From Pyrinomonadaceae bacterium (GTDB lineage Bacteria; Acidobacteriota; Blastocatellia; Pyrinomonadales; Pyrinomonadaceae), in contig DATLMV010000044.1 of assembly GCA_035537095.1 (NCBI GenBank), positions 41-64,040 on the forward strand: a stretch of 64,000 nt of DNA. Reading direction: 5' to 3'. Positions 13,743 through 55,634 of this stretch are shown piece by piece. The translations under genes were made by a program, and so were the position numbers. Within the stretch, counting starts at the first letter, position 1; every line of letters begins with the position of its first letter. The notes beneath the pieces were generated by a model. It was given only the letters and a program-made list of their open reading frames with translations. It was not told the origin of the DNA and searched no databases.

Positions 13743-13775
13743 CGTTGCTTCATGAAGGAATTGCTATATGAAAGT

Positions 13776-14720: not shown

Positions 14721-14750
14721 CTTTCACTCCTTACACACTCAAACGCGGTC

Positions 14751-19787: not shown

Positions 19788-19802
19788 AACGAAGCCTCAA
19801 AG

Positions 19803-19903
19803 CAGATGTTAGATGTTAGATGTTGGAAGAAGCAGGAAGATGGAAGACTCTCCTTCCGCTTTTCGCCTCTTTCTAACATCTGACATCTAACATCCGACAT
19901 CTG
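19803..19903. repeat. Imperfect long hairpin, GATGTTA-type arms
   Basis: 19803-19823 cagatgttagatgttagatgt versus the reverse complement of 19883-19903 (cagatgtcggatgttagatgt): 19/21 match. Tandem agatgtt x3. Lies between the A2M-1 start and the DUF1175 stop. Confidence 0.8.
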
Positions 19904-19907
19904 TTGT

Positions 19908-20747
19908 TCATTCGAGCATCTTGAGCCGGTAGAATCCGAGAAAGTTGCGGTTGCGCTCAAGGGGACGCCAGCGACGGTCGGGATGTTGGTCGAGCACGGC
20001 GAGGCGAACTTTTTTGATCGTGCCTGCGCCATCGGCCACCGTGCCCGTGTGATAGACCACCCAATCGTCGGCCCCTTCGTTTTGTGCGCGCGCCGCGCCG
20101 AGATAAATCATGACGTGGAAGGGATACTTCTGCGCCCACGGTTGATAGAAAAAGAGCAGGTCGCCCGCCTCGGCCTGCCTGCGGTCGCGGCTGACGAAGG
20201 TCGAGTTGAACTCCTTGAGCGTGCGCGCGTCGGCGAAGTCGGAGAAGGTGGCATCGCGCAGGTCTGTCTCACGAAACGCGCCGGAGCGCGTGCGGAAGAG
20301 TTTTTCGCCGACGGGGCTGCGTTCGAGATTGTATGCGCGCACGTCGGGCGCGAACTGCTCGTAGCCCGCGCCCATCTTCTGAAACCAGCGGCGGTCGTGC
20401 GGGCGCAGAGCCTCGCGCCAAGCGAAGCGCACGAGTCCCGCACAGTCTCGCTGCTCCGCGTTCCATGATTCGCTCTGCTGGTAGAACTGCATCTCGGCGA
20501 TGCTCACGAACCAGCGACGGAAACTTTCGCGGTCGCCGTGCGTGTGCAACTCGATGCGGTCGGGGAGCCCGTCGGCGTCCGCGTCGTTCCAGACGTGCGC
20601 GTCGCGTGTCGTTGTAGTGGATGGCGGCTGAGAGGGCGCGCGTCCGGCGTGCGCTTCGAGCGGCGCGGGGCGCAGGCAAGCCCCGGCAAGCGTGCAGGCG
20701 AGCACGAGGAGCAGCAGACGGATTGTGAGACGGACACGGGGGAACAT
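19908..20747 (-). CDS. DUF1175 (YfaT-like) family lipoprotein
   Basis: Track ORF trimmed to the ATG at 20747-20745 (MFPRVRLTIRLLLLVLACTLAGAC, lipobox-like), 279 aa. FRRWFVSIAEMQFY...RDCAGLVRFAWREAL matches my recollection of DUF1175 proteins, which accompany bacterial A2M genes. Confidence 0.65.
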   Translation of the reverse strand: MFPRVRLTIRLLLLVLACTLAGACLRPAPLEAHAGRAPSQPPSTTTTRDAHVWNDADADGLPDRIELHTHGDRESFRRWFVSIAEMQFYQQSESWNAEQRDCAGLVRFAWREALRPHDRRWFQKMGAGYEQFAPDVRAYNLERSPVGEKLFRTRSGAFRETDLRDATFSDFADARTLKEFNSTFVSRDRRQAEAGDLLFFYQPWAQKYPFHVMIYLGAARAQNEGADDWVVYHTGTVADGAGTIKKVRLAVLDQHPDRRWRPLERNRNFLGFYRLKMLE

Positions 20748-20982
20748 CTGTGTAGACGAACTACCGGAACCTCCTGCTATCGCTCGCAAGCGCGACCCGA
20801 CGAGCCTTCGATCTCCCTTTGATGCGCGGCGAGAAAACTTTGGCCGCGAGACGTGCGCGATGCGCCTTTGCGGGCGCTCCGGTGCAGCGGTTTGTGTGCG
20901 TGCTAAAACTAACACGAGCGTCAAGAGTTGTCTCCAAAATTTTTATGCGCCCGAACGTGACGCAGCAGCAATCAACAAAAGT

Positions 20983-21025
20983 CTGCCCTTTATCTTTTGC
21001 CTTTTGCCTTTGCCTTTTCTCTTTC
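20983..21025 (+). repeat. Single pyrimidine-rich block (CTTTTGCC tandem)
   Basis: ctgccctttatcttttgccttttgcctttgccttttctctttc. No complementary arm within about 100 nt. Confidence 0.7.
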
Positions 21026-21528
21026 GCGGCGGGCAACGGTGCGGCACACGCGGGAGATTATCGCCCGCTTTCGACGCGCGCGCGAGACTGAGGCTGACAT
21101 AGCGAGTAGCATGCCGCAACGCGCCGCGCCTGTGGCTATCCACATTGACGGCGCGGCGCGTTATCGAGCACGGACTCCTGCGGGTGTGTGCCGCGCATCC
21201 GCGTTCTCAAAACAGGCTCTGTCCTGAGGATTACGCTCGCGCCGTTTTTGTGACGGCGAAGTTCGGGCTGCAAGCTTTCGTCTCTCCGGCGTTCTTCAAG
21301 CGTGTGTGATTTAATGCGCCCGCACGCGCGTGCGCTTTGTCTAAAGGAAATATCCGTCACGCACGCGCACGGGGCGGCGTTAAGTTAAGTTTAGGCAGCG
21401 CGGTCAACCTTCCGGCGGCGCGGCGTCATCAGAGTCGAAACGGTTGCGTGCGGCGGGCGTCCGCTCCGGCGGTCGTCGCCGTCTTCCGTGAAGCCTTCCG
21501 AGATCGAAAGAGACTGTTCCTCAATTCT

Positions 21529-24500
21529 ATGAAACCACTTAAAGCGTCCATCCTGCCGCTCATTCTTCTGCTGCTCGCGCCCCTCGCGCTCGCAGCCGCG
21601 CAACAGGGCGAGTACGAAAAACTCAAGACCGAAGCCGAGCGTTTCTACGCCGAATCCTCGTATGCGCGCGCGCGCGAGTTGTACGAGCGCGCCGACGCTC
21701 TGGAAATTCCGGCGGACGATGCGCGATGGGTTGATTTTCGTCTCGCCGATACGCTCTGGCGCGCGCAGGCCGCGACCGAAACCGCCGACACGACCAAGCA
21801 CGAACGCGCGCGTGCGGAACTCGAAGAGTTGATTCGCGAGAGCGAGCGCGCGGGCAAGCGCGACCGGGTGTGGGCCGAGGCGCACGAGTCGCTCGGTGAT
21901 TTCTGGTGGACGCGGCGCGAAGTGCGCGCGTGGGGCACGGCTTGGCCGCACTACAAGGAGGCGTTGGAGTGGTGGGCCGGGGCGCGCGACATCGAAGCGG
22001 CGCGCACGCGTTATCTCAAGATCGTCTGGACGGTCGCCCGCCCGCCCCGCGTCGAGGATTATTACTACTACGGCTACCACGGCAACACCCTGCCGATGGA
22101 TGTCCTTGAGAACGCGCTCAAGATCACGCGCAGCCGCGAAGACCAAGCGCACGCGCATTATCTGCTGGCGATGACCTTGCGGCAGCAGGGCGACGGCGAG
22201 ATGCGCGCGCGCGCCGAGGAGGAGTTTGAGGCCGCGCTCAAGACGGGCAAGGCGAGCGAGTGGTACGACGATGCGCTCCACTTCTACGCCGAGTGGTTGT
22301 CGAACTACGGTCGCGCGCGCGCGTCGGAGGATGGTCAATGGACGTTCGAGCCGGACTTCGTGAAGGCGGTCGCGTTGTATCGTCGCCTGCTCGCGGAGCA
22401 CCGCAAGGGCGAGACGCGCTACTACGATACGGCGCAGCAGCAGGTAGAAAATCTGACGAAGCCGACGCTCAACGTCGGCGTCTCGAACGTCTTTCTGCCC
22501 GACTCCGAGATACAGTTTCATGTCAACTGGCGCAACGTCCGGCGCATCAACTTCGCGCTCTATCCGCTCAACCTTCCGCGCGACGTGCGTTTCGAGAGCA
22601 AGGACGCAGACCAATCTTGGATACAGGCCATCAGGCCGCCCGCCGGACAGCGCGTGCGCGCTTGGACGAAGGAGACGGGAGACAAAGGCGACCACACTCC
22701 GGCGCAGGAGTTGGCGCGCATCGAGGGCAAACTGCCCGTCGGCGCGTACCTTCTGGAAGCGACGACCGAGAGCGGCGTGCGCGCGCGTGAAGTGATTCTC
22801 GTGACGGATGCCGCGCTCGTCCTGAAGTCGTCGGGCAAGCGTGCGCTCGTCTATTTCTGCAACGCGCAGACGGGCGCGCCCATCGCGGAGGCGAGCGTCA
22901 AGGTCTGGCAGAGGATGTACCAGAACAGCGTGTGGGTCTGGTGGGAGAAGTCCGGCGTGACGAACGCGGACGGCATCGCCGTCTTCGATTTACCGGAGAA
23001 AGAGCACGGTTCGGAGATGTTCGCCAGCGCGGAGCAGCAGGGCCGACAGGCGTTCAGCAACGGCTACACTTCGTATCATCACACGGACGCTCAGGCGTGG
23101 CGCATCTACGCCTTCACGGATCGTCCCGCCTATCGCCCGCGCGAGACGATGCAATGGAAGTTCATCGCGCGCCGCTACGAGGCGGGCACGTATTCGACTC
23201 CGGCGCAGCAGACTGTCGAGTTTGAAATCGCCGACCCGCGCGGCACGAAGGTGCATGAAGGCAAGGCTGTCTTGAACACGTTCGGCAGCGCGTGGGGGAC
23301 GCTCGAACTGACGGAGGCGATGCCGCTCGGCGAGTATCGCGTCACGTTCTGGAACGCCGGACGCCAGCAGCACATCGGCGGCGCGACGCTCTTTCGTCTC
23401 GAAGAGTACAAGCTGCCGGAGTTCAAAGTTAAAATCAGCACGCCCGAAGTTGACGGCAAGCGCAAAGCGTTCCGGCTCGGCGAGCGCGTCGAAGTCAAAC
23501 TCGAAGCCGCTTATTACTACGGCGGGCCGGTCGGCGGCGGCACGGTCGAAGTCCTCGTCTATCAGAACCCCTTCTATCATTGGTGGCAACCGGAGCGCGA
23601 CTACTCTTGGTACTACGACGACTCGGAGCGGATGCGCCGCTACTACGGCGGCGGCGGGCAGATTATCAAACGCGAGACGCTGAAGCTCGACGCCGAGGGC
23701 CGTGCGTCTCTGAACTTCGAGACGCCGCGCAGCGCGGGTCAGGATTTCGAGTATCGCATCGAGGCGCGCGTCACCGATGCGTCGCGGCGCGAGATCACCG
23801 CCAACGAGACGGTGCGCGTCACGCGCCAGCGTTACTACGTCTATCCGCGCGCCGAGCACAATCTCTATCGCCCGCAGGATACGGTCAAACTCGACATCAA
23901 GGCGCTCGACGCCAACAATCAGCCGGTCGTCGCCGAAGGGCAGTTGAAGGTGACGCGCGACTACTGGTACGAAATCTGGATTGACCCGCAGGGGCGCGAG
24001 GTCAAGGGCGAAGAACTGCGCCTCCTGCGCGCACGGCACGGCATGTTTCCGCCCGCGCCGAAGGCGGGCGCGCGCACGGGCTGGCGTCTCAAGTTTCGCG
24101 GCTACGAGTACGACGACATCCTGACGCAGACCGTCAAGACAGACGACGCGGGCGCAGCCGAGTTTCGTTTCAAGCCGGAGCGCGAGGGCTTCTACCGCCT
24201 CTCTTGGACGAGCCCCGACAAGGGCGCGCAAGCTATCCGCGCGGAGACGACCGTGTGGGTTGCCACCAACGCGACGACCGAGACGGGCTACCGTCAGGGC
24301 GGCGTCGAGATCATCGTAGACCGCGATACTTTCCGCGCGGGCGAGACGGCGCGCTTAATGTTGAGCGTCCCGACGAACGACCGCTACGTGCTGTTCAGCG
24401 TCGAGGGCGAAGACCTCTACAGCTATCGTCTCGTGCATCTGACGGGCACGGCGAAACTCATCGAGTTGCCCGTCGAAGAACGACACGTCCCGAACATCTT

Positions 24501-42102: not shown

Positions 42103-42466
42103 TCGGCGTATTGACAAGCGCGCGCGTTGAGTTTGCTCTGCGTGCTTCATCTGAAATTTGGAATTGAAATCGCTCTTGCCGCCCCTCTCTCACCTGCACA
42201 GACCGATTGACGCCGCCGTCCGTCTCCTCCCACGCTCGCGCGCCTCCGCTCGCTCGAATCAGCGGCGCGCGCCCCGTAGAATTACTTCTTGACTTTTAAA
42301 CGGGCTGTAATAGAGTTGCTCCATCGCAGCAATGATAACGAGCAGCGTTCAGACGCCGGATGTCGGCCCGAGACATCTCCGGCCTCCGGCATCTGAAAGC
42401 TGTCTTTCCGGTTCATCAATCAACTTTCCGGTGTCGTCTCAAACTGCACAGCGAGGCTTGGGGATT

Positions 42467-44038
42467 ATGTCATCCACTCGGCGCGATTTTCTGAAAACTG
42501 CGGGGCTGGCGGCGGGCGCGGTGGCGTTGCCCGCATGGGTTTTCGAGGCGGAGGCCGAGGGCGCGGCGGCGGTGGACAAGAACCGTCTGGCCGACATCGC
42601 GCTCTCGACGGCGAAGCGGCTCGGCGCAAACTACGCCGACATCCGCATCAACCGTTATCGCTTCGAGTCGGTGGCGACGCGCGAGCGGCAGGTGCAGAAC
42701 GTGTCGCGCAGCCAGAACTTCGGTTTCGGCGTGCGCGTGCTCTACAAGGGCGCGTGGGGCTTCGCCGCGAGCAGCGTCGTCACGCCCGCGGAGGTCGGGC
42801 GCATCACGGGGCAGGCCGTCGAGATTGCGCGCGCCAACTCCGCGTTCCAGCGCAAGCACGTCCAACTCGTCGGCGCGCCGAAGGTCACGGCCAACTGGAA
42901 AAGCGCCTTCGAGCGCGACCCCTTCGACGTGCCGATTGACGACAAGATTCAGTTCTTGCTCCGACTCAACGAGGCGGCCTTGAAGACCGAGGGCGTCAGC
43001 TTCGTCAATTCGTCGGTCGTCTTCGTCAACGAGCAGAAGTTTCTCGCCACCTCCGACGGCTCGCGCATCGAGCAATACCTGATTCGTTGTTCGCCGAACC
43101 TCAACGTCACCGCCGTCAATCGCGCGAACGGCGATTTTCAGACGCGCGCCGCGCTCGCGGGGCCGCAAGGCATGGGCTACGAGTATCTGGAAAAATACCC
43201 TTGGCTCGTCGAGGCGCAGCAGGCGGGCGAAGAGGCGGTCGCCAAACTCAAGGCGAAGCCGGTCGAAGCGGGCAAGTACGATTTAGTCCTGCACCCTTCG
43301 CATCTCTGGCTGACGATTCACGAATCCGTCGGGCATCCGACCGAACTCGACCGCGCGCTCTGGTGGGAGGCCAACTACGCGGGCACGAGTTTCCTGACGC
43401 CCGACAAGACCGGCAAGCTACAGTTCGGCTCGAAGATAATCAACTTCGTCGCCGACCGGACACAGGCGGCGGGCCTCGCCACCGTCGGCTTCGACGACGA
43501 GGGCGTCCCCGCGCAACGCTGGCATCTCGTCCGCGACGGCGTCTTCGTTGACTGGCAGACGACGCGCGACCTCGCGCCGCTCATCGGTCACAAGAAATCC
43601 TACGGCTGCCTGCACGCCGAGAGTTGGAGCGAGATTCCCTTCCCGCGCATGCCGAACGTCTCGCTCGAACCGGCGAAGGAGAACGTCTCTTTGGACAACA
43701 TCATCGGCGGCGTCGAGAACGGGATTCTGATTTACGGTCGCGGCAGTTATTCGATTGACCAGCAGCGTTACAACTTCCAGTTCGGCGGGCAGACTTTCTG
43801 GGAAGTGAAGAAGGGAAAGATCACGGGGATGCTGCGCGACGTGGCCTATCAATCGCGGACGACCGATTTCTGGGGCGCGTGCGATGCGCTCGGCGGTCAG
43901 GCCACCTATCAACTCGGCGGCAGCTTCAACGACGGCAAGGGCGAACCCGGCCAGTCCAACGCCGTCTCGCACGGTTGCCCCATCGGGCGCTTCCGTGGCA
44001 TCAACGTCCTCAACACCGCCGCGCCGGAGCGTTCATAG
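42467..44038 (+). CDS. TldD-like metallopeptidase with Tat signal
   Basis: Track ORF trimmed to the ATG at 42467 (MSSTRRDFLKTAGLAAGAVALPAWVFEAEA twin-arginine signal), 523 aa. HExxxH-type motif IHESVGHPTELDR. TldD/PmbA fold pattern. Confidence 0.85.
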   Translation: MSSTRRDFLKTAGLAAGAVALPAWVFEAEAEGAAAVDKNRLADIALSTAKRLGANYADIRINRYRFESVATRERQVQNVSRSQNFGFGVRVLYKGAWGFAASSVVTPAEVGRITGQAVEIARANSAFQRKHVQLVGAPKVTANWKSAFERDPFDVPIDDKIQFLLRLNEAALKTEGVSFVNSSVVFVNEQKFLATSDGSRIEQYLIRCSPNLNVTAVNRANGDFQTRAALAGPQGMGYEYLEKYPWLVEAQQAGEEAVAKLKAKPVEAGKYDLVLHPSHLWLTIHESVGHPTELDRALWWEANYAGTSFLTPDKTGKLQFGSKIINFVADRTQAAGLATVGFDDEGVPAQRWHLVRDGVFVDWQTTRDLAPLIGHKKSYGCLHAESWSEIPFPRMPNVSLEPAKENVSLDNIIGGVENGILIYGRGSYSIDQQRYNFQFGGQTFWEVKKGKITGMLRDVAYQSRTTDFWGACDALGGQATYQLGGSFNDGKGEPGQSNAVSHGCPIGRFRGINVLNTAAPERS

Positions 44039-44046
44039 GAGGCAGC

Positions 44047-45396
44047 ATGCTACTCAACGAAAAAGAGGCCCGCGCCATCAGCGAGCGGATGCTCGGCTAC
44101 GTCCGCGCCGACGACGCGACCGTCGCCGTCTCCAGCCTCAACTATTCGCACCTGCGTTTCGCGGCCAACTCTTTCACGACGAGCGGGCGGCAGGAGAACG
44201 CGAGCGCCAGCGTCGTCGTCTGGATTGACAAGAAGCGCGGCGCGGCCTCGACCAACGAGATGGACGAAGCCTCGCTCAAGGCCGCCGTCGAACAGGCCGA
44301 ACAACTCGCGCGCATCTCCCCCGTTGACCGCGAATACCTGCCGACGCTCGCGCGCCAGACCTACAAACCGACCAACGGCTTCGCGGAAGCCACCGCCAAC
44401 ATCTCCGTCGCCGACCGCGCGCGCAGCATCAACGAAGCCATCGCCGCTTGCGAGCGTGCGAAGGTGGTCGGCGCAGGGTTTCATCAGGCGCGCGGGACGG
44501 CGAATGCGACCGCCACCAAGAACGGCAACTTCAACTACGAACGCACGAGCCTCGTCAGTCTCGGCATGACGGCGCGCACCGCCGACGGCGCAAGCTCCGG
44601 CTATTTTCTCCGCAACCATTTCGACGTTGCACAACTCGACACGGCACGCGTCGCGCGCGAAGCGATTCGCAAGGCCGTCGAGTCGCGCGCGGCGCGCACG
44701 CTCGACGCGGGCGTCTACCCGGTCGTCCTCGAACCGCAGGCCGTCGCCGACCTGCTCTCCGGCCTGTCCTTCAGCTTCGACGCGCGCAACGCCGACGAAG
44801 GCCGCTCGCCGCTCTCGCTCGCGGGCGGCAAGACGCGTCTCGGCGAGCGCATCTTCGACGAACGGCTCAATCTCTACAGCGACCCCTGGAACGCGCAACT
44901 GCCCGGCTCACAGGCGGCGCAGGCCGGACTCCCCGCGCAGAAAATCTATCTCGTCCGGGGCGGCGGCGTGGAGAATCTCATCTACTCGCGTTTCTGGGCG
45001 CAGCAGAAGGGCAAGGAGCCGACGGCTGGCCCCGTCAACACCATCCTCGAATCTTCCGCGCCCGCCGCGACGCTCGACGAGATGATTCAAAACACGCCGC
45101 GCGGTCTGCTCGTCAGCCGCTTCTGGTACATTCGCGGAACGGACGCGCGCACCGCCTCTCTCACAGGATTAACGCGCGACGGCGTCTGGTACATCGAGAA
45201 CGGCAAGATTCAATATCCTGTCAAAAACTTCCGCTTCAACCAGAGCATCATGCAGATGCTCGCACCCGGCAACGTCGAGATGATCGGCACGCCCGAACGC
45301 GTCGGCAACTCCGAAGGACAGGGCGACAACGCCTCGCTCCTTCCCGCCCTCAAACTCAAAGCCTTCAACTTCACTTCACAGTCTGAAGCGGTCTGA
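44047..45396 (+). CDS. PmbA/TldE-like protein (partner of TldD-like peptidase)
   Basis: Track ORF trimmed to the ATG at 44047 (MLLNEKEARAISERMLGYV...), 449 aa. TldD/PmbA family pattern without a metal motif. Begins 8 nt after the upstream stop. Confidence 0.85.
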   Translation: MLLNEKEARAISERMLGYVRADDATVAVSSLNYSHLRFAANSFTTSGRQENASASVVVWIDKKRGAASTNEMDEASLKAAVEQAEQLARISPVDREYLPTLARQTYKPTNGFAEATANISVADRARSINEAIAACERAKVVGAGFHQARGTANATATKNGNFNYERTSLVSLGMTARTADGASSGYFLRNHFDVAQLDTARVAREAIRKAVESRAARTLDAGVYPVVLEPQAVADLLSGLSFSFDARNADEGRSPLSLAGGKTRLGERIFDERLNLYSDPWNAQLPGSQAAQAGLPAQKIYLVRGGGVENLIYSRFWAQQKGKEPTAGPVNTILESSAPAATLDEMIQNTPRGLLVSRFWYIRGTDARTASLTGLTRDGVWYIENGKIQYPVKNFRFNQSIMQMLAPGNVEMIGTPERVGNSEGQGDNASLLPALKLKAFNFTSQSEAV

Positions 45397-45578
45397 GAAG
45401 GCGGTACGCGCGCGTCGGCGCGTGTCGTTGAGAGTGCAGAAGTCCGGATCATCTCAAAATCAACCGAAATAGATTAACGGCCCGCAGCATTACATGTTGA
45501 AGCCCTGCCGGAGAGGCTGCGGGTAAAGCGAACCGGCGGGCGAAGCTCGGTAGCCAAACTTAGACGTGGAGATTATTC

Positions 45579-48500
45579 ATGTCATTTGATGAGAGAAGAT
45601 TTATCGCGCGCGTCGAGGCGGCGAACGCAGAAGAGTTGGCACGCCTGCTGGCCCGCCCCAGCGCGGACGAGGAGCGGGCTTGGCGCGTCCATCTCGGTGA
45701 CGAACGCTTCGAGCGGATGCGTGAGATGGCCTCGCCGGAGACGGTTGCCACGCGCGGCCAGACGCAGCCGAAGGGAAACGTCGTCGTCATTCACGGCATC
45801 ATGGGGGCGGAGTTGAGCAACTTCTCTTCCCCGACTTCGCAGGAACTCATCTGGGTCAGCTACTGGCGAATTCTTCGCGGTTGGGCGGAGCGTCTCAAGC
45901 TCAACTCCGACGGCGAAACTTCCAAATACGACGTGCGCCCGACCGGAGTGATGAAGGATTACTACGGCGAGATGCTGCTCCAACTACGCCTCCGGGGTTG
46001 GAACGTGCAGCCCTTTGCGTTCGACTGGCGGAAGGACATCAACGGCGCGGCGGATAACCTCTCGCAGAAGATTAACGAGTGGTTCGGCGAAGAGAGCGCG
46101 GTGCACATCGTCGCGCATTCGATGGGCGGCCTCGTGGCGCGCTCCTTCATCAAAAAATATCCCGACCGTTGGGCCTCGATGTGGGACGCGTCGGGCGACG
46201 GGCGCGCGGGCGGTCGTCTCGTCATGCTCGGCACGCCGACCTACGGCTCGTTCATCATCCCGCAGGTGATAACGGGCATCGAGCCGATGGTGATTAAGCT
46301 GGCATGGCTCGACGCGCGCCGACTCTTCGGCGTGTCGGATATTTTGGAGACGACCAACACCTTCCCCGGCTCGTTACAGATGCTCCCTTCCCCGCGCGTG
46401 ATGAGCAAGATGGAGCCGCTCTATCATGCGCAGACCTACGGCAAGTTCGTCGTCTCGCAGCAGCATCTCGACAACGCCCGCCGCTTTCACGAACAGATGC
46501 ACGACGTAGTTGACGAGAAGCGTATGATTTACGTCGCGGGCTTCAACCGTAAGACCTTCAGCAACATTGTGGACTTTAAAAAAATCGGCGCGGCAGAAGG
46601 CTATGAGGTCACGTTGCGCGGCGACGGGCGCGTCCCGCACCTGCTCGGCATCCCGCGCCGCAGCGACAACAAACCCATCGAACGCGTCTATTACATAGAG
46701 GAAGACCACGGCGAGTTGCCAAGGAATAGAACCATCCTCTCTATCATGGACGAAATGTTGTCGAAAGGCTCGACCAGCGCGCTTGCGACGAGCATTCCGG
46801 CGACCATGCGCGGGGTCGGGGCGGAAGAAAGCGCGCAGACCAAACTGGCGGCGCGCAATCAACTCGTCGCGGAACAGAAGGCGGAGGTCGAGCGTTTCCG
46901 CCAACTCGCCGACAGTCTGAAGGCGACGCGCGGCGCGGCGGCGGAGGTGGAGGCGCAGGTCTCGCCGGAGGAGCGAAAGATACGCGCCAGTCTCTTAGAA
47001 GGCGCGCCGAGTGCGGAGCAGCGCGACATGGTGGGGCCGCCCATGCCCTTCGAGATTGCTCTGCTGTGGTCGAAGATAAACGAGGTGGGAGAAGAAGCGG
47101 GGAGCGCGGGCGGCGGCAGGAAGCGCGGAAGCAAAGGGCCTCCTCGGGTTGATGCCATCTCCGTCGGACACTATGCGGGCGTCGGGCGTCCGGAGAGGGC
47201 CGAGCAAGCGATTGACCTCGCCATCAGCCGTGCCCTCTTCGAGAAGCAACTAAAGCACGACGAACTGAAAGCACTCCTCGACGCCAGAGGCGAAGTGCCC
47301 GAAATCCATCGCCTCCTGACGCTCTATTCCGACCGGGGCATCATCAGCGGCGACTTGGCTCAACCCTTCTTCCTCGACGACCCGCGCATGGCGGGCGAGC
47401 GCGTGATTGTGCTGGCCGGAATGGGATTGCCCGGACGCTTCGGCGCGCCCGAACTGACCGTGCTCGCGCGTGAACTCTGCTGGTCGCTCGGACGCATGGG
47501 TAAGAAACATCTGGCGACCGTCCTCATCGGCGCGGGCAAAGGTAATATCCCGATTGAGGATGCGCTGATAGCGTGGATGCGCGGCATCCGTCGCGCCGTG
47601 ACCAGTTCCACGCACGACGAAGTCTGGCGTCTCCGGCGCATCACCTTCGTCGAGAACAATCCCGACCGGATTGAAAATATTCAGAAGGCCATCATCAACG
47701 CCCAGCAGCGAGAGTTACAGGATTCGACGCACGAACAGACCCTCAACATCATCTACGAACCGCTCGACCTCAAGACGTTGACCAACAAGGACGGGCACAC
47801 GCTCAAGCAGGCCAGCGCGGCGCAAGCGAGAGAGGACGCGCGCTGGCGGGCGCGGCAACAGCAACAGACTCGTGGTGCTTCCGGCAAGCAGGCAGAGTCG
47901 CGCACGCCCTCGCGCATCACCGTGACTCTCGAAGGCAACAAGTACCGCTTCGGCGCGGTGACCAACGACGCCTCCGTGCCGGAGCGCGAAATCCCGCTCG
48001 ACCCGTCGCTCGTCATCGAAGCCAACGATGAACTCGCCAACACAATCGAACACCGGATGCAACTCGACTGGGGCAGGCACATGGAGAACCTGCTCGTCCC
48101 GGACGACCTGCGCCCCGCCTTCAAAACCGACGCCCCGCTCCTGCTCACCCTCGACCGCACGACGGCGCGCATCCATTGGGAGATGATCGCCCAACCCGAC
48201 CCTCTGCGGATGGGCGACGCCGACGGCGACGCCCCGACCGCGAAGGCCGACGGCTTCGACTCCTTCCTCAGCACCAGTCGCGGCCTCACGCGCCAACTCC
48301 GCACCAACTTCGCGCCACCGCCCGAACCGCCCCCGCCGCCCCGCCGCACGTTGCGTGTCCTAATCGTTGCCGATCCTGCGACGGACAGAAGCTTGCAGGG
48401 AGCGAAAGAGGAAGGAATGCTCGTCGCCGACATGTTCGAGGCTTTCAACACGGTCTATCCGAAGTCGGAGAACCGCGTCAAAGTCACGCGACTCTTCGGC

Positions 48501-49244
48501 GGCGTGGCGACGCGCAACAACGTCCTCTTTCATCTGACGCAGCGCGGCCCCTTCGACATCCTTCACTTCGCGGGCCATTGCACCTACGACGAAAACGACC
48601 CGTCTTCTTCGGGTTGGATTTTCACCGGCGGCAAGCGTCTGTCGGCCAACGAACTGAGCCGCATTGATAACGTCCCGAAGTTCGTCTTCTCGAACGCCTG
48701 CGAGTCGGGCAAGACGCCGGAGACGCGCACCGACCGGCTCGCGCCGAGTTTCGCCGAATCGTTCTTCGCGCGTGGCGTCGCCAACTTCGTTTGCACGGCT
48801 TGGCCCGTCAACGATGTCGCCTCAACCGAGTTCGCGCTCAAACTCTATGCGGGACTGCTCGGTCTCGTCGAAGCGGATAACCCAGACTATATCCCTTCCG
48901 CCGATGATGAGATGCCCATAAAGACCTACGCCGCTGCGCCCACTCCGCTCAGGATGCACCAAGCCATGCGCGACGCGCGTCTCGCCATCGCACGTTCGCC
49001 TCACGGTGCGAAGACTTGGGGGGCTTACCAGCACTACGGCAACCCCTACCTTCAGTTCTTCGACCCGCAAGCCCTTCAAGGCCCGCCGCCGCTCGACGAG
49101 GAGCGGCGCGCCAACTCACGCGCCCCGCAATCCGTAACCAAGACGGCGCAGAAATCGTCGCGCACCGTTACTACGACAGCCAAGAAGCCTGCGACGAAGA
49201 AGGCACGACGAGGCGCAAAGAAGTCGCGCAAGTCCGACGCCTAA
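45579..49244 (+). CDS. Multidomain protein: lipase-type alpha/beta hydrolase + unassigned central module + CHAT protease + Lys-rich tail
   Basis: 1221 aa, GGAG RBS before the ATG. Hydrolase motifs: VVVIHGIMG, AHSMGG (Ser codon 46119-46121), RGDGRVP, EEDHGELP. CHAT dyad: ILHFAGHC (His codon 48576-48578) and FSNACESG (Cys codon 48699-48701). Tail KKPATKKARRGAKKSRKSDA. No signal peptide or TM helix. Confidence 0.85.
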   Translation: MSFDERRFIARVEAANAEELARLLARPSADEERAWRVHLGDERFERMREMASPETVATRGQTQPKGNVVVIHGIMGAELSNFSSPTSQELIWVSYWRILRGWAERLKLNSDGETSKYDVRPTGVMKDYYGEMLLQLRLRGWNVQPFAFDWRKDINGAADNLSQKINEWFGEESAVHIVAHSMGGLVARSFIKKYPDRWASMWDASGDGRAGGRLVMLGTPTYGSFIIPQVITGIEPMVIKLAWLDARRLFGVSDILETTNTFPGSLQMLPSPRVMSKMEPLYHAQTYGKFVVSQQHLDNARRFHEQMHDVVDEKRMIYVAGFNRKTFSNIVDFKKIGAAEGYEVTLRGDGRVPHLLGIPRRSDNKPIERVYYIEEDHGELPRNRTILSIMDEMLSKGSTSALATSIPATMRGVGAEESAQTKLAARNQLVAEQKAEVERFRQLADSLKATRGAAAEVEAQVSPEERKIRASLLEGAPSAEQRDMVGPPMPFEIALLWSKINEVGEEAGSAGGGRKRGSKGPPRVDAISVGHYAGVGRPERAEQAIDLAISRALFEKQLKHDELKALLDARGEVPEIHRLLTLYSDRGIISGDLAQPFFLDDPRMAGERVIVLAGMGLPGRFGAPELTVLARELCWSLGRMGKKHLATVLIGAGKGNIPIEDALIAWMRGIRRAVTSSTHDEVWRLRRITFVENNPDRIENIQKAIINAQQRELQDSTHEQTLNIIYEPLDLKTLTNKDGHTLKQASAAQAREDARWRARQQQQTRGASGKQAESRTPSRITVTLEGNKYRFGAVTNDASVPEREIPLDPSLVIEANDELANTIEHRMQLDWGRHMENLLVPDDLRPAFKTDAPLLLTLDRTTARIHWEMIAQPDPLRMGDADGDAPTAKADGFDSFLSTSRGLTRQLRTNFAPPPEPPPPPRRTLRVLIVADPATDRSLQGAKEEGMLVADMFEAFNTVYPKSENRVKVTRLFGGVATRNNVLFHLTQRGPFDILHFAGHCTYDENDPSSSGWIFTGGKRLSANELSRIDNVPKFVFSNACESGKTPETRTDRLAPSFAESFFARGVANFVCTAWPVNDVASTEFALKLYAGLLGLVEADNPDYIPSADDEMPIKTYAAAPTPLRMHQAMRDARLAIARSPHGAKTWGAYQHYGNPYLQFFDPQALQGPPPLDEERRANSRAPQSVTKTAQKSSRTVTTTAKKPATKKARRGAKKSRKSDA

Positions 49245-49253
49245 AGCGAAACC

Positions 49254-49321
49254 ACGAACGCACGCGCAACAACACGAGGAGGCGGCTTTACATCTCTTCG
49301 TGTTGTTGCGCGTGCGTTCGT
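49254..49321. terminator. 24-bp perfect hairpin between the convergent lipase-CHAT gene and the beta-propeller gene
   Basis: 49254-49277 acgaacgcacgcgcaacaacacga is the exact reverse complement of 49298-49321. The stem extends about 5 bp further with G-U pairs. It begins 10 nt after the stop codon. Confidence 0.6.
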
Positions 49322-52297: not shown

Positions 52298-52843
52298 TTA
52301 CTGTTCCGTGTCGCCCGCCGCGTCGTCGGTCAGCGTCTTGCCCATGGCGTCGGGGTCGCGCATGAGGAGCATCAGTTTTTGCGGGGCGATGTCGAGTTGG
52401 ACTGCCGTTGCGTCGCGGCGTCCGATGCTGACGACGACGATCTTGAAGAACTTGCCCGCCTCTTTCGTGTAGATGTATGTCTGCTCGGCGTTGCGGTCTG
52501 TCCGCACCTGCACGAGCGGCTGCCATTCGGGTTCGAGACGCGTCCGCATCGCGGCATGGAAATCGAGTCCTCCGGCGGGCGCGGTGAAGTCCTGATCTTC
52601 AAAGAACGCCACCTTGACGCTGCCGTATTCGGCGTAGCGCGTGAGCCGCCGGGCGACCATCTGCGAGGCTTTCAAGCCCATGTTCGCCAGCGCCGGGATG
52701 CCCTTGTGTTTGACGCCGTAGTGGCGTTCGATGAGTTTGACGACATCGCCGAACTCGATTGACTTGTAGGCGGCGTGCGCGTTCGCCAGATGGGAGAGCA
52801 GCAGGAGCGCGACGACGAATCGGGTTAAGAGTTCTTTTCGCAT
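52298..52843 (-). CDS. Secreted hypothetical protein (possibly DUF4252-like)
   Basis: 181 aa. Signal peptide MRKELLTRFVVALLLLSHLANAHA. Similar size and position to the neighbouring DUF4252-like gene in an ECF cluster. Confidence 0.5.
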   Translation of the reverse strand: MRKELLTRFVVALLLLSHLANAHAAYKSIEFGDVVKLIERHYGVKHKGIPALANMGLKASQMVARRLTRYAEYGSVKVAFFEDQDFTAPAGGLDFHAAMRTRLEPEWQPLVQVRTDRNAEQTYIYTKEAGKFFKIVVVSIGRRDATAVQLDIAPQKLMLLMRDPDAMGKTLTDDAAGDTEQ

Positions 52844-52853
52844 CCGTCACCTC

Positions 52854-53462
52854 TCAATGCTTTTTGGGCTGCGCCTTCGTCTCGGTCTCCAACTCAAGGT
52901 CGGGGATGCCGAACTGTCCTTCGAGCCTGCTCAGGCGTTCGAGGTCAACCGAGCCGACGATGTTGACGACCGTCAGTTCCTTCGGCTCAAGGCTCAAGAC
53001 CACGAGACCCTCCACGCGCCCGCCGTTCGTCAGCAGATAAACTTCGACGTTCTTACCCTCGCGGCGGCTCTTGACCTCGACGATGCGCGTCCAACCCGGC
53101 GCGCTCAACTGCGAGCGCACCTGCGCGACATCCGTCTCGGCGTATTCATTTTCGGCGTCGAACTGGAAGTGACGCACGTAGACGCCCTTCAAATCCGCGA
53201 CCAGCTTCTTGACGTTCGCCTCCTCGGGGTCGGCCTTCGAGAGAATCGGCGGCACGATGCGGAGCAGGCGTTCGTCCATGTTGACGTTGACGGTCTCCGC
53301 CGCGCGGTTGCCCAGACGGTCGAGCGAGTCGAACTGTAGCTTGCCGCTCGTCAAAGTCGTCTGAGCTTGCGCCGCCGCTGCTGCCGCCGTGCAGAGCAGG
53401 AGCGCGACCGAAGCGCATCTGAAGAATGTTGTGACCAATGATTTCATACTGACTCCAATCAT
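52854..53462 (-). CDS. DUF4252-like secreted protein
   Basis: 202 aa. ATG at 53462 overlaps the upstream TGA (ATGA). Signal peptide. The ...LKGVYVRHFQFD...VEVYL...EGLVVLSLEPKELTVVNIVG pattern and the ECF sigma context fit DUF4252. Confidence 0.6.
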   Translation of the reverse strand: MIGVSMKSLVTTFFRCASVALLLCTAAAAAAQAQTTLTSGKLQFDSLDRLGNRAAETVNVNMDERLLRIVPPILSKADPEEANVKKLVADLKGVYVRHFQFDAENEYAETDVAQVRSQLSAPGWTRIVEVKSRREGKNVEVYLLTNGGRVEGLVVLSLEPKELTVVNIVGSVDLERLSRLEGQFGIPDLELETETKAQPKKH

Positions 53463-54223
53463 CTATCCAATTTATTTTGCTCGTCGGGAGCGGGTTTGCT
53501 GCCGCCCGGCGTCGTCGCCGTCTGCGTCTTGCGCTGGACGAGACTCAGTTTCGCGCTCGTCAAACGAAGGGCCAGCATCAACTGCTCTTTCGCCGCCTGC
53601 TGTTCCGCTGCGGTGACGTTCGCGGCCTGAAAGTCACGTTGCGCTTCGCCCGGTATAAACTTTCGTGTCGGCGTCCGCTGGCGCGCGACCGCCTGCGCTT
53701 CTCTTGCACGCCGCATCTCTCTATTCACTTCGAGACGCTCGCGCCGCTTCGACGACTGCGACGCCGCCGCGCGCTCGTTCACGAAGGGCCGAAACTTTTT
53801 CACCGTCGTGACGGCTGCGACTGTCTCATCATGTCGGGTTGTGACGGTCGCCTCTCCAGTCTCGCGCTCAGGTGTCGCCGCTTCGCTCGCCGCTTGATTC
53901 GTCGCCGCTTCGTTCGTCGTCTGTTGAGCCTGTTCCGGCTTTGCCGTCGTCGCCGTCGTGCTGCGCGCGGTCAGGGGAGCATTCGCGTTTTTGTTCCGCG
54001 TGCGGAGGACGCCGAGCCAGAGGCCCGCGAGCGCGACGAAGGCGAGGGCCGCCGCCGCCGCGAGCGCAGGCCAGAAAGGGCGACGACGGCGCGGCGCGTG
54101 CGAGAGGATTTCGGGCGGCAAGGCCAGAGGCTTTTTTTGATGGCGGAGGTTGCCGAGTAAATCTTCGAGCCGCTCGATGTCTTTGTCGGCCTCGCCCGAT
54201 TTGTCCCACAGGTAGTCGCTCAT
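53459..54223 (-). CDS. Putative anti-sigma factor (single-pass membrane protein)
   Basis: 254 aa. N-terminus MSDYLWDKSGEADKDIERLEDLL, TM helix FWPALAAAAALAFVALAGLWLGVL. ATG at 54223 overlaps the sigma gene's TGA (ATGA). Confidence 0.55.
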   Translation of the reverse strand: MSDYLWDKSGEADKDIERLEDLLGNLRHQKKPLALPPEILSHAPRRRRPFWPALAAAAALAFVALAGLWLGVLRTRNKNANAPLTARSTTATTAKPEQAQQTTNEAATNQAASEAATPERETGEATVTTRHDETVAAVTTVKKFRPFVNERAAASQSSKRRERLEVNREMRRAREAQAVARQRTPTRKFIPGEAQRDFQAANVTAAEQQAAKEQLMLALRLTSAKLSLVQRKTQTATTPGGSKPAPDEQNKLDR

Positions 54224-54831
54224 ACTTGACCCCCAATCCCAAGCTTCTCACGCAAAATCTTCATCCCTCGATGCAGGTTGACCCGCACGGAGTCGGGCTG
54301 CAAACCCGTCCGCGCCGCAATCTCCGGCCCCGTCATGCCTTCCACCAGACGCAGCACCAGCGTCTCCCTGTATGCGTCCGGCAGCGTGCGGATGACATCT
54401 AAAACTTCCGCCGCCTCCGCGACGGGCGCACTCGGTCGCGCCATTTCTTCGGAGAGTTCTTCGGTCTCGCGCGTGCGCCGGTGAAAGTCCATCGCACGGT
54501 TGCGCGCGATCATCGCCAGCCAAGGGCCGAACGCTCCGGCGTCGCGCAGGGTGGAGAGCTTCTTGAAGGCGACGAGGAAAACGTCCTGCACTAAATCTCC
54601 GACTTCGCCGTAAGGGACACGGGCCAGAAGGATGCCATGCACCATCGCGGAGTAGCGGTCGTAGAGTTGACCGAAGGCATCGCGGTCGCCGCCCCTGACG
54701 GCCTCCACCCACGTCGCCTCGACCGTGACTGTTGCAGCCGCAGGTTCTGTTACTGCGGATTGGTTCTGTCCGACCATAAGCAGTAAGGCGTTGGTTGTTT
54801 CAACCTCTAGCATTGACGAACCTCGGGGCAT
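54220..54831 (-). CDS. ECF sigma factor (RpoE-like)
   Basis: 203 aa. Region 2 (DLVQDVFLVAFKKL...FGPWLAMIARNRAMDFHR) and region 4 (LPDAYRETLVLRLVEGMTGPEIAARTGLQPDSVRVNLHRGMKIL). The start could instead be the ATG at 54813. Confidence 0.85.
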   Translation of the reverse strand: MPRGSSMLEVETTNALLLMVGQNQSAVTEPAAATVTVEATWVEAVRGGDRDAFGQLYDRYSAMVHGILLARVPYGEVGDLVQDVFLVAFKKLSTLRDAGAFGPWLAMIARNRAMDFHRRTRETEELSEEMARPSAPVAEAAEVLDVIRTLPDAYRETLVLRLVEGMTGPEIAARTGLQPDSVRVNLHRGMKILREKLGIGGQV

Positions 54832-55327: not shown

Positions 55328-55450
55328 AAAGAAATCTCCTCAAAAATTTGTTACCTGTTAATTTTAGTCTCTTAAAGTTGATTCCCAAGCGTCGCTCAAA
55401 ATCAACTGTCATGCGTCTCTCAAAAGCTGTTGGGAAATACGGGTCATGCT

Positions 55451-55634
55451 GTCCCGTAGGGACAACCGAGAATAGCCCAGCGATTCATCGCTGGGGACAG
55501 GAGTCGTGCATCTTTTCCAGTCCCGCAGGGACGGCTGAATGCCGCAATCAGTCGTCCCTACGGGACTCCAACAATATTCTCTGAATATACCCAGCGATGA
55601 ATCGCTGGGCTATTATCAAAAGTCCCTAACGGGG
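55451..55634. repeat. Nested-palindrome element (MITE/REP-like)
   Basis: A 25-nt perfect inverted repeat aatagcccagcgattcatcgctggg (55471-55495 versus 55590-55614). Each copy is itself a hairpin (cccagcga-nnnn-tcgctggg). Four further small hairpins GTCCC-n3/4-GGGAC at 55451-63, 55520-32, 55554-66 and 55622-34. Confidence 0.85.

Follow-up and report, generated by a model that had tools for sequence, protein, structure and literature searches.

A lipase/macro-like/CHAT fusion family represented in a Pyrinomonadaceae genome: conserved modules of a candidate regulated dual effector

One gene in a 64,000-nucleotide stretch of a Pyrinomonadaceae bacterium genome (contig DATLMV010000044.1, positions 41 to 64,040 of the forward strand; hereafter the window, meaning the whole stretch analysed) encodes a 1221-aa protein in which an alpha/beta-hydrolase lipase domain, a macro-fold domain and a CHAT caspase-like protease domain lie in a single chain. 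We use LCHAT as shorthand for the lipase/macro-like/CHAT family that contains this protein. Its domains can be identified, its active sites are conserved, its relatives are spread across many phyla of soil bacteria, and their gene neighbourhoods and fusions recur. We judge it somewhat more likely than not that LCHAT is a regulated dual effector, both protease and lipase, of the conflict or programmed-cell-death type, acting in the cytoplasm. We infer its immune role, the sensor role of its macro-like domain, its activation route and its targets, and these are weighed below against other explanations.

The open reading frame (ORF) extends from ATG to stop at 45579..49244 (+), is the single long ORF at the site, and is preceded 7 nt 5' of the ATG by a Shine-Dalgarno-like GGAG at 45568..45571 (+), read from the sequence. 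In the homologue search the window protein itself (P0001) carried the NCBI name 'CHAT domain-containing protein [Pyrinomonadaceae bacterium]'. The 1221-aa protein has no signal peptide and no transmembrane segment, with a top 19-residue Kyte-Doolittle mean of 1.37. A previous reading of the window's letters (the original prediction) had proposed this complete ORF, the lack of a signal peptide and of a transmembrane helix, a lipase of LCAT/PGAP1-like type with its triad motifs, a CHAT domain with an intact caspase-like dyad, and a Lys/Thr-rich basic tail. ORF calling, hydropathy, profile searches, structural matches and conservation bore out each of these proposals, as detailed in what follows.

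The lipase domain spans aa 65-400 (45771..46778, +) and contains VVVIHGIMG, the nucleophile elbow AHSMGG with Ser181 (46119-46121), RGDGRVP with Asp349 and EEDHGELP with His377, all at the residues first proposed. The Pfam LCAT profile is matched marginally above threshold, at 23.8 bits against a gathering cut-off of 21; the PGAP1, DUF676 and DUF7379 profiles fall below their cut-offs on the same nucleophile-elbow region, and a precomputed PF02450 match is present on many homologues. Searching the Protein Data Bank (PDB) by sequence returned weak alpha/beta-hydrolase matches alone. At the level of fold, Foldseek matched the lipases 4hs9 and 1ku0, LCAT (4xwg) and PlaB (6zth) at E values of 5e-6 to 6e-4, and also 2hih. 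Residue conservation and segment identities were calculated over 80 full-length members of the family: Asp349 is invariant (80/80), His377 is kept in 79/80, and Ser181 in 75/80, the other five having Gly or Ala. By profile, triad and fold, the module is a predicted LCAT/PGAP1-type alpha/beta-hydrolase.

The CHAT domain occupies aa 778-1160 (47910..49058, +). Pfam CHAT (PF12770) is matched over aa 852-1155 at E=1.1e-21, with 78 bits against a gathering cut-off of 24. The dyad lies in ILHFAGHC (His1000, 48576-48578) and FVFSNACESG (Cys1041, 48699-48701), exactly where it had been placed, and both residues are present in 80/80 relatives. Foldseek matched the fold to Csx29 (8eex_B), SAVED-CHAT (8tl0) and separase (5fby) at E values of 3e-5 to 4e-4. 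Profile, dyad and caspase-like fold agree in making this module a predicted CHAT protease.

Between these two catalytic domains, the segment at aa ~490-780 had been left unassigned in the original prediction; structure prediction gives it a macro fold. An AlphaFold2 (AF2) model of aa 1-1165, built on a 59-sequence alignment, had a mean predicted local distance difference test score (pLDDT) of 78.7 and a predicted template modelling score (pTM) of 0.49. Compared with the PDB by Foldseek, the full model returned three classes of match: lipases and LCAT; CHAT proteins; and a class made up of macro domains and M17 leucyl aminopeptidase N-domains. The structural comparison envisaged at the outset recognised the lipase, macro-fold and CHAT modules. 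A separate model of aa 486-782 reached a pLDDT of 89 and a pTM of 0.86, and its 254 PDB matches at E<=1e-3 were all macro domains or M17 N-domains. The top M17 N-domain match was 1gyt_A at 1.1e-7; the macro domains matched were macroH2A, MACROD1/2, YmdB, DarG, TTHA0132 and Trypanosoma macro domains, as well as designed macro-scaffold proteins, with target-normalised template modelling scores of up to 0.74. On the strength of these models, the module at aa 487-728 (47037..47762, +) is a predicted macro-fold domain and a candidate regulator or sensor.

Sequence comparison brings this module closest to the M17 branch of the fold. A 44-sequence profile searched against the PDB had a sole match, the N-domain of Xanthomonas leucyl aminopeptidase (3jru_B, E=9e-4). 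Pfam Peptidase_M17_N (PF02789) was matched by 19/44 members with a best E of 2.4e-5, the window segment itself being unmatched at E<=1, and hhalign against the N-domain of E. coli PepA gave E=6e-4 and a probability of 28% over 70 columns. Pfam Macro (PF01661) was matched by 0/44 members at E<=1, and hhalign against E. coli YmdB gave no match (probability 1.5%); at the level of sequence, membership of the true macro family was rejected on these two results. The protein has no Pfam match to the catalytic domain of Peptidase_M17, the C-terminal partner of the module being CHAT. The M17 N-domain has no known ADP-ribose binding and no known nucleotide ligand. Within the module, G530, Y532, R586, D601, G614, E632, W635, G651 and W666 are each invariant (80/80). 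An invariant Gly-rich loop, LATVLIGAGKGNIP (GxGxGN), has the spacing of the diphosphate-binding loop of the YmdB macro domain, VAFPAISTGVYGYP, when aligned by eye, and it is absent from PepA. This likeness to macro loop 2 is the sole support for putative ADP-ribose binding, and it is only a lead. A phmmer search with the module against 1.84 billion representatives yielded 382 matches, nearly all of LCHAT type or macro-like-CHAT type, so that the module appears to be family-specific and effector swapping on it, with the module visibly common to other effectors, was discarded.

The description of the gene as an orphan holds for the locus, which has no partner genes, but not for the protein, which has at least 1356 homologues at E<=1e-3 in a search of 5.8 billion proteins. 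Among these 1356 matches, the best 120 each align over 90-100% of the query, 119 of them over at least 95%, with 47-58% identity; they come mostly from Pyrinomonadaceae and Blastocatellia and are named, if at all, 'CHAT domain-containing protein', 'pimeloyl-ACP methyl ester carboxylesterase' or 'hypothetical protein'. With one genome taken per GTDB species, 276 relatives were found in 185,579 species genomes, over more than ten phyla. The best 80 of these 276 are 39-57% identical and nearly all full length (aa ~1-1165), two of them (L035 and L085) being cut by a contig end. Carriers include Acidobacteriota; Actinobacteriota (Rubrobacteraceae and Solirubrobacterales); Chloroflexota; Gemmatimonadota; Gammaproteobacteria; Myxococcota (with the cultured Hyalangium versicolor); Verrucomicrobiota; Planctomycetota (with the cultured Tautonia sociabilis); Nitrospinota; Binatia; and Rhodothermales. 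In a neighbour-joining tree the phyla are interleaved, with Rubrobacteraceae and Thermomicrobiales sequences nested among Acidobacteria, and two paralogues (L055 and L065) occur on a single Planctomycetaceae contig; because of both observations, the distribution has the pattern of an accessory, horizontally mobile gene.

Mean pairwise identity is 0.51 for the lipase, 0.48 for the middle module and 0.62 for the CHAT core, against 0.17-0.25 for the linkers, which argues for comparable constraint on all three globular modules. The two intact hydrolytic centres of the original prediction are conserved across the 80 relatives from more than ten phyla; catalytic residues are kept in 75/80 to 80/80, and no loss in the majority of homologues was observed. 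The protein begins with a conserved helical domain of 4-5 helices at aa 1-57 (45579..45749, +), modelled as helices at 5-57 with a pLDDT of 73-91 and showing a mean pairwise identity of 0.47. A hidden Markov model (HMM) of the N-terminal 75 aa, searched against all neighbouring ORFs in 86 loci, matched only a mis-clustered LCHAT itself; an effector-associated domain (EAD) principle, in which an EAD- or Death-like adaptor is common to effector and NTPase, was rejected on this ground. The charged helical linker at aa 401-486 (46779..47036, +) contains a long helix at 419-449, has low pLDDT at 451-459 and 475-486, and has an identity of 0.25. The connecting long helix at aa 729-777 (47763..47909, +), modelled as a helix at 742-766, has an identity of 0.17.

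Two disordered segments complete the chain. Inside the CHAT domain, an Arg-rich and poly-Pro loop at aa 873-923 (48195..48347, +; ...SRGLTRQLRTNFAPPPEPPPPPRR) has a pLDDT below 50 across 873-921, yet its mean pairwise identity of 0.52 is on par with that of the folded domains; R905 and R908 are present in 80/80 members and P918 in 79/80. A reasonable guess is that this is a regulatory, autoinhibitory, pseudosubstrate or cleavage loop. Its PPPPP run would require elongation factor P (EF-P) in translation. At the C-terminus, the Lys/Thr/Arg-rich polybasic tail at aa 1166-1221 (49074..49241, +) is variable in sequence and conserved as a property across the family, with a median length of 31.5 aa and a median net charge of +8.5; 76% of family tails carry a net charge of +3 or more.

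Architectural variants show how these modules combine elsewhere. A metagenomic protein of 1633 aa (P0131) has an nSTAND1 NTPase fused N-terminal to a complete LCHAT that has Glu in place of the lipase Ser and Val in place of the CHAT Cys; since this dead LCHAT sits where STAND (signal transduction ATPases with numerous domains) proteins usually carry sensor repeats, it may be a decoy or sensor. P0193 (1776 aa) is an LCHAT with a C-terminal phospholipase D (PLD)-like (HKD) domain, and P0174 (1666 aa) has an extra C-terminal region of ~480 aa with no Pfam match. Conversely, P0167 (688 aa; locus L086, 6001-8984, inside a 44-kb contig) is a complete macro-like-CHAT protein that has no lipase domain; its gene is followed at a distance of 9 nt by a convergent gene for a patatin-like phospholipase and preceded by one for a Ser/Thr kinase, and the separate patatin phospholipase appears to substitute there for the fused lipase. 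Further macro-like-CHAT sequences of ~600-730 aa (P0121, P0129, P0138, P0148 and P0175) are possibly incomplete. Because lipase-less variants and lipase-dead members exist, the protease probably has a role independent of the fused lipase.

In a further variant, an 840-aa protein encoded on a Qingshengfaniella alkalisoli plasmid (L089, 5959-8481), a lipase of this LCAT/PGAP1-like type is fused to a trypsin-like peptidase; by its domains the protein would be analogous to LCHAT in joining lipase and protease, but with another protease fold. Giant alpha/beta-hydrolase-CHAT proteins of ~1790 aa are encoded on Paracoccus, Azotobacter and Burkholderia plasmids (L090, L094, L095 and L096). The one giant protein scanned, from Paracoccus yeei (L090), combines CHAT with an LCAT-type domain and two alpha/beta-hydrolase domains of DUF7379 type; the Paracoccus genes are each preceded by one for a ~1090-aa hypothetical protein, and the plasmid with the Azotobacter gene is mobilizable, the neighbours of the gene there being a DNA methyltransferase, a recombinase and insertion sequence (IS) elements. 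These giant proteins were set apart from the family as a different and more distant architecture.

With both catalytic centres intact within one chain, LCHAT could also be the protease-gated lipase of the original prediction, a zymogen in which CHAT cuts its own linker or Arg-rich loop, has no targets in trans, and frees or unmasks the lipase as the sole executioner. The linkers at aa 401-486 and 729-777 are long, of low confidence and poorly conserved, the conserved disordered loop at 873-923 offers a possible cleavage site, the related type IV Thoeris protease and PCaspase are both described as arginine-specific, and the polybasic tail could bring a freed fragment to the membrane. Such a zymogen sits poorly with the pattern of losses, however: the lipase Ser is lost in 5/80 members and the CHAT dyad in 0/80, complete macro-like-CHAT proteins occur without any lipase, and adjacent C14 caspase genes in 7-11 loci point to a substrate in trans. 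We regard the zymogen as an unlikely account of the family, though one with real points in its favour.

The dual-effector reading draws further on gene neighbourhoods. ORFs were called in 86 loci and their neighbours clustered, with counts within 10 kb taken out of ~84 loci. Immune partners occur at ~30% of related loci. In ~11 loci a SIR2_2 gene lies directly 3' of LCHAT on the same strand and is followed by an overlapping nSTAND1-WD40/TPR NTPase gene; the order and strand are constant, with gaps of 25-110 nt, and the arrangement is found in two distant clades, Acidobacteria and Chthoniobacterales (Verrucomicrobia). SIR2 is present within 10 kb in 14/~84 loci. A distant homologue with 25% identity, WP_168302769.1, is encoded on plasmid p1 of Rhizobium leguminosarum GLR17 (NZ_CP071627.1; locus L088, 6815-12277); it has LCAT, Peptidase_M17_N (29.8 bits against a gathering cut-off of 23.4) and CHAT domains and is followed by a SIR2_2-pYEATS gene and then a DNA/RNA non-specific endonuclease gene, which makes this strain a cultured, tractable carrier of the LCHAT-SIR2 pairing. 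A second recurrent partner is a Peptidase_C14 caspase gene (~275 aa), located directly 5' of LCHAT on the same strand in 7-9 loci from Rubrobacteraceae, Thermomicrobiales, Chloroflexia, Sphaerobacteraceae and Solibacteraceae; C14 is present within 10 kb in 11/~84 loci. Pfam annotation of 140 immediate neighbours gave SIR2_2 12 times, Radical_SAM with Zn_ribbon_HMPTM 8, Peptidase_C14 7, TIR_2 2 and subtilase 2, and PADLOC on the same 140 gave ThsA-type SIR2/PDC-S25 10 times and caspase 6.

Two loci or groups of loci deserve separate description. Locus L001, on a 6.27-Mb Acidobacteria contig, has at 13763-23738, 3' of LCHAT-SIR2-nSTAND1, an additional pair of SIR2_2 genes and another nSTAND1-WD40 gene (1442 aa), and a TIR-domain gene 5 kb 5'; it looks like a dense immune island. 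In L004, L005, L012-L016, L020 and L030 (loci of ~10 kb), the gene divergent from LCHAT is in every case one for a radical-SAM protein of ~660 aa whose N-terminus carries a Zn_ribbon_HMPTM. This neighbour belongs to one Pyrinomonadaceae/Blastocatellia clade and has a weak viperin-like score in PADLOC (pVip, E ~1e-14); its presence may reflect vertical synteny and nothing more, or it may be an additional partner.

The recurrent SIR2 neighbour and the macro fold, taken together, suggest a NAD-derived cue for LCHAT, and a narrower form of the dual-effector reading follows this line: the macro-like domain would bind ADP-ribose or a derivative made by SIR2 or TIR after nSTAND1 has sensed an invader, and the bound ligand would switch on CHAT and lipase, giving a NAD-signal-activated effector that resembles Thoeris II or SAVED-CHAT but is driven by SIR2. 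SIR2 is the commonest neighbour, and neither its order nor its orientation changes across three lineages, one of them that of the 25%-identical homologue; TIR neighbours occur twice; the Gly-rich loop described above is spaced like that of YmdB and missing from PepA; type II Thoeris is known to use a macro domain as its sensor; and PlaB, a Foldseek match of the lipase, is regulated in Legionella by NAD(H). The sequence of the module speaks against it, in that Pfam Macro and YmdB are unmatched and the best relatives are M17 N-domains, which lack a known nucleotide ligand. Most loci, including the window, have no SIR2 or TIR nearby, SIR2-nSTAND1 pairs also stand without LCHAT in locus L001, and SIR2-nSTAND1 pairs are known as NAD-depleting effectors and not as signal makers. 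As a whole we hold this narrower form to be improbable, and a NAD-derived cue as such is given a similarly low or slightly lower standing because the module leans towards M17_N and so many loci are solo. The sensor role first proposed for the central module has the ligand sensing of macro folds elsewhere, as in type II Thoeris, in its favour; its sequence is nearer to M17_N than to an ADP-ribose-binding macro domain.

A fully spelled-out version, in which an nSTAND1-WD40 sensor activates a SIR2 enzyme whose product is received by the M17_N-type macro-fold domain and so switches on CHAT and lipase, with CHAT possibly firing C14, is more doubtful again. Under it, stand-alone LCHAT copies such as that of the window would be receivers shared among NADase systems encoded elsewhere.

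Several observations weigh against the dual-effector reading in general. Some ~70% of related loci are solo, with unrelated, housekeeping-looking neighbours, as in the window, where HMMs built from the neighbouring SIR2, C14, nSTAND1 and radical-SAM proteins of related loci found no match in the six-frame translation of the 64 kb. In Pyrinomonadaceae the slot formed by a divergent radical-SAM gene, LCHAT and a downstream run of LpxA/D...LpxB occurs with or without a SIR2-nSTAND1 insert, so that the partners are dispensable and possibly merely co-located. No homologue was found among sequenced phages, and no PADLOC model was matched by the LCHAT protein, the only trace being a BovA match of 0.021 over the CHAT core. 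The composition of the window copy is native (G+C of 0.60-0.64 for the gene and 0.60-0.67 for its flanks), and recent horizontal transfer of this copy, considered as an explanation, has no compositional signal. By sequence the middle module appears closer to M17 aminopeptidase N-domains than to ADP-ribose-binding macro domains, and at a pTM of 0.49 the inter-domain arrangement of aa 1-1165 is not reliably modelled. Two parts of the original outlook are partly supported: the link to conflict genes is found in relatives, through SIR2-nSTAND1, C14, TIR, fusions and patatin, but the window copy has no defence-island context; and the architecture is shared by 80 relatives, but most loci are solo.

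LCHAT could alternatively have a housekeeping function in envelope biogenesis, as a regulated enzyme with acyltransferase and protease activity that processes lipids or lipoproteins, its immune link being coincidental. One Pyrinomonadaceae clade keeps LCHAT in conserved synteny with the lipid-A genes LpxA/LpxD/LpxB and the radical-SAM gene, the window copy stands between ordinary genes with native composition, and LCAT-family enzymes can work as acyltransferases. Against this, SIR2-nSTAND1 is inserted between LCHAT and the Lpx genes, so that these do not form an operon, and the protein has no signal peptide or transmembrane segment for an envelope role. We consider housekeeping very unlikely because of the patchy distribution (276 of 185,579 species genomes over more than ten phyla), the fusions to nSTAND1 and PLD, to which paralogues within one genome may be added, and the absence of the synteny outside one family.

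The size of the protein, its several domains and its disordered basic tail, together with the general fact that lipases are common anti-bacterial effectors, would also fit a toxin exported against other bacteria, in which the lipase is a Tle-like effector sent out through a secretion system and CHAT is its maturation protease. This we regard as highly improbable, because export signals (signal peptide or transmembrane segment) are lacking and the 140 immediate neighbours include no markers of type VI secretion (T6SS), type VII secretion (T7SS) or contact-dependent inhibition (CDI) and no immunity-gene pattern; the partners that were found, SIR2, STAND and C14, are intracellular.

Comparison with described systems places LCHAT beside several of them and inside none: it is not a member of the SAVED-CHAT, Craspase, Thoeris, VMAP or gasdermin systems. 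NCBIfam models gave nothing meaningful for the protein. One close parallel is SAVED-CHAT of type III-B CRISPR (8tl0; Foldseek E=7e-5, 16-17% identity), where the CHAT dyad likewise follows a non-catalytic regulatory domain, and where a published cascade leads from SAVED-CHAT to PCaspase; the small C14 caspase beside some LCHAT loci resembles this step, and by analogy the recurrent C14 neighbour may mirror the cascade. The LCHAT regulator, however, is macro-fold and M17_N-like and not SAVED, an N-terminal lipase and a polybasic tail are added, and there is no CRISPR-Cas system or cyclic oligoadenylate (cOA) synthase near LCHAT. Pfam found neither SAVED nor TPR in the protein, and no Cas families are among the 25 commonest in the 140 neighbours. 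Csx29, the TPR-CHAT protease of Craspase, and separase share the CHAT fold and dyad (8eex_B, 7zoq_A, 8d9f_A, 5fby_A and 7nj0_A) but differ in domain context, as LCHAT has no TPR, no Cas7-11/gRAMP and no Csx30-like substrate gene. No gasdermin gene was found in the window or among the 25 commonest neighbour families.

The coupling of a caspase to an alpha/beta-hydrolase has precedent. In the VMAP ternary systems, caspase-superfamily peptidases always have a neighbouring alpha/beta-hydrolase gene, and a joint action of the two in conflict was proposed (Kaur, Burroughs, Iyer & Aravind, eLife 2020, PMC7159879). These MoxR-vWA (von Willebrand factor A) systems also occur in soil or 'multicellular' bacteria of similar phyla; they differ in that caspase and hydrolase are encoded by two neighbouring genes attached to VMAP, MoxR and vWA components, in place of one fused chain with a macro-like insert. 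Neither MoxR nor vWA/VMAP lies beside the window gene or among the 25 commonest Pfam families of the 140 neighbours. Alpha/beta-hydrolase, caspase and SIR2 were listed among the effectors when nSTAND1 was defined (Kaur et al. 2021, PMC8195603); for this conflict system, nSTAND1, SIR2 and C14 are all absent from the window, and nSTAND1 is present in ~11 related loci and one fusion. Alpha/beta-hydrolase and CHAT were likewise described as NLR (NOD-like receptor)-associated effectors (Dyrka et al. 2020). The literature consulted, whose coverage is incomplete so that absence is not proof, held no description of a lipase/macro-like/CHAT fusion or of a CHAT-SIR2-nSTAND1 operon. The statement that no lipase-CHAT architecture has been characterised thus survives for the fused form, but the pairing itself was already on record as neighbouring genes (PMC7159879).

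Thoeris offers the other half of the comparison, with Macro sensors in type II and caspase-like effectors in type IV (Rousset et al.). Like type II, whose Macro effector senses His-ADP-ribose (His-ADPR), and type IV, in which TIR makes N7-cyclic ADP-ribose (N7-cADPR) for a caspase-like protease, LCHAT has a macro-fold candidate sensor and a caspase-like executioner, and its relatives adjoin NADase-family genes, SIR2 and occasionally TIR. The partner is nevertheless SIR2-nSTAND1 and not the ThsB TIR, the macro-like domain is of M17_N type, and the window copy has no partner. PADLOC gave no Thoeris match for the protein, and TIR_2 was found in 2/140 neighbours and not in the window. For the middle module itself, the N-domain of M17 leucyl aminopeptidase (PepA/LAP, PF02789) is the best relative at the sequence level and the top structural one; in those enzymes, too, a macro-fold domain is joined through a long helix to a C-terminal peptidase, but the peptidase of LCHAT is a caspase-fold cysteine protease, and PepA does not have the invariant GxGxGN loop.

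Lipolytic, membrane-directed executioners are familiar from patatin CapV in CBASS, the lipase-type LmuA of Lamassu and the fungal SesB-like alpha/beta-hydrolases of NLRs. LCHAT shares a lipolytic domain with these and with PlaB, its Foldseek match, but none of them unites it with a CHAT protease and a macro-like module in one chain.

The following sequence of events would account for these features under the dual-effector reading. Where CHAT proteases have been characterised, the regulator is the domain that immediately precedes CHAT: either SAVED, which binds cyclic triadenylate (cA3), or TPR, which binds Cas7-11 and Csx30. Since the macro-like domain holds the same position as SAVED in SAVED-CHAT and TPR in Csx29, it is a plausible regulator of LCHAT and would keep the enzyme off at rest. 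An upstream cue would then activate it, probably via oligomerisation; the cue could be a small ligand, phosphorylated or derived from NAD, or else a partner protein, for example a STAND NTPase. The CHAT protease would cleave its targets, of which the C14 'PCaspase-like' partner is a likely one where it is encoded next door. The lipase would attack phospholipids and kill or arrest the cell, with the polybasic tail possibly aiding membrane targeting. Being stand-alone, the LCHAT of the window must in that case sense by itself or answer a signal made elsewhere in the genome.

The immediate surroundings of the gene fit the expectation that its flanks are unrelated, as neighbour annotation bore out. 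On the 5' side lies a TldD/PmbA-type metallopeptidase pair (42332-45396, +), unrelated to LCHAT, whose first member bears a twin-arginine (TAT) signal, so that the pair is probably exported; on the 3' side is a convergent gene for a PQQ (pyrroloquinoline quinone)-type beta-propeller. The 24-bp perfect hairpin noted at the gene end is part of a very stable structure at 49254..49321 with arms of 28 nt each (49254-49281 and 49294-49321), a folding free energy (dG) of -60 kcal/mol and a z of -10.3. Because it sits between the LCHAT gene and the convergent beta-propeller gene, it is most simply a bidirectional terminator of both; a repeated element was ruled out, as it occurs once within the 64-kb window. 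Further along, the sole Rfam match in the window is an Acido-Lenti-1 small RNA (sRNA; RF01687) at 55450-55495 (-), with 47 bits against a gathering score of 37, and no tRNA genes are present in the 64 kb. A four-gene cluster at 52298-54831 (-) comprises an extracytoplasmic function (ECF) sigma factor (54220-54831), a 253-aa ORF, a DUF4252 protein (52854-53462) and a 180-aa ORF, a typical arrangement of ECF sigma, putative anti-sigma and DUF4252.

Bacterial immunity is increasingly found to employ CHAT and caspase-like proteases as its executioners, in Craspase, in the SAVED-CHAT to PCaspase cascade, in type IV Thoeris and in gasdermin activation. To these LCHAT adds a widespread, uncharacterised architecture, with at least 1356 proteins, with at least 276 species-level genomes from more than ten phyla and with cultured carriers in Hyalangium, Tautonia and Rhizobium. 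Its components and logic are already familiar from recent work on bacterial immunity, and the window copy has no informative context; the family unites protease, lipase and macro-fold domain in one chain and is recurrent beside SIR2-STAND and C14 genes. The family makes three questions testable: how protease and membrane-lytic death effectors are co-regulated, whether SIR2 enzymes serve as a signal source for downstream effectors, and what the M17 N-domain fold does outside aminopeptidases. Should stand-alone and partnered copies prove to be receivers of a SIR2 product, LCHAT would provide the first SIR2 that generates a signal instead of depleting NAD, the first ligand-sensing role for the M17_N branch of the macro fold, and the first bacterial protease-plus-lipase death cascade. 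Even if its role turned out to be housekeeping, LCHAT would still give a function to the large annotation class of 'CHAT domain-containing protein'.

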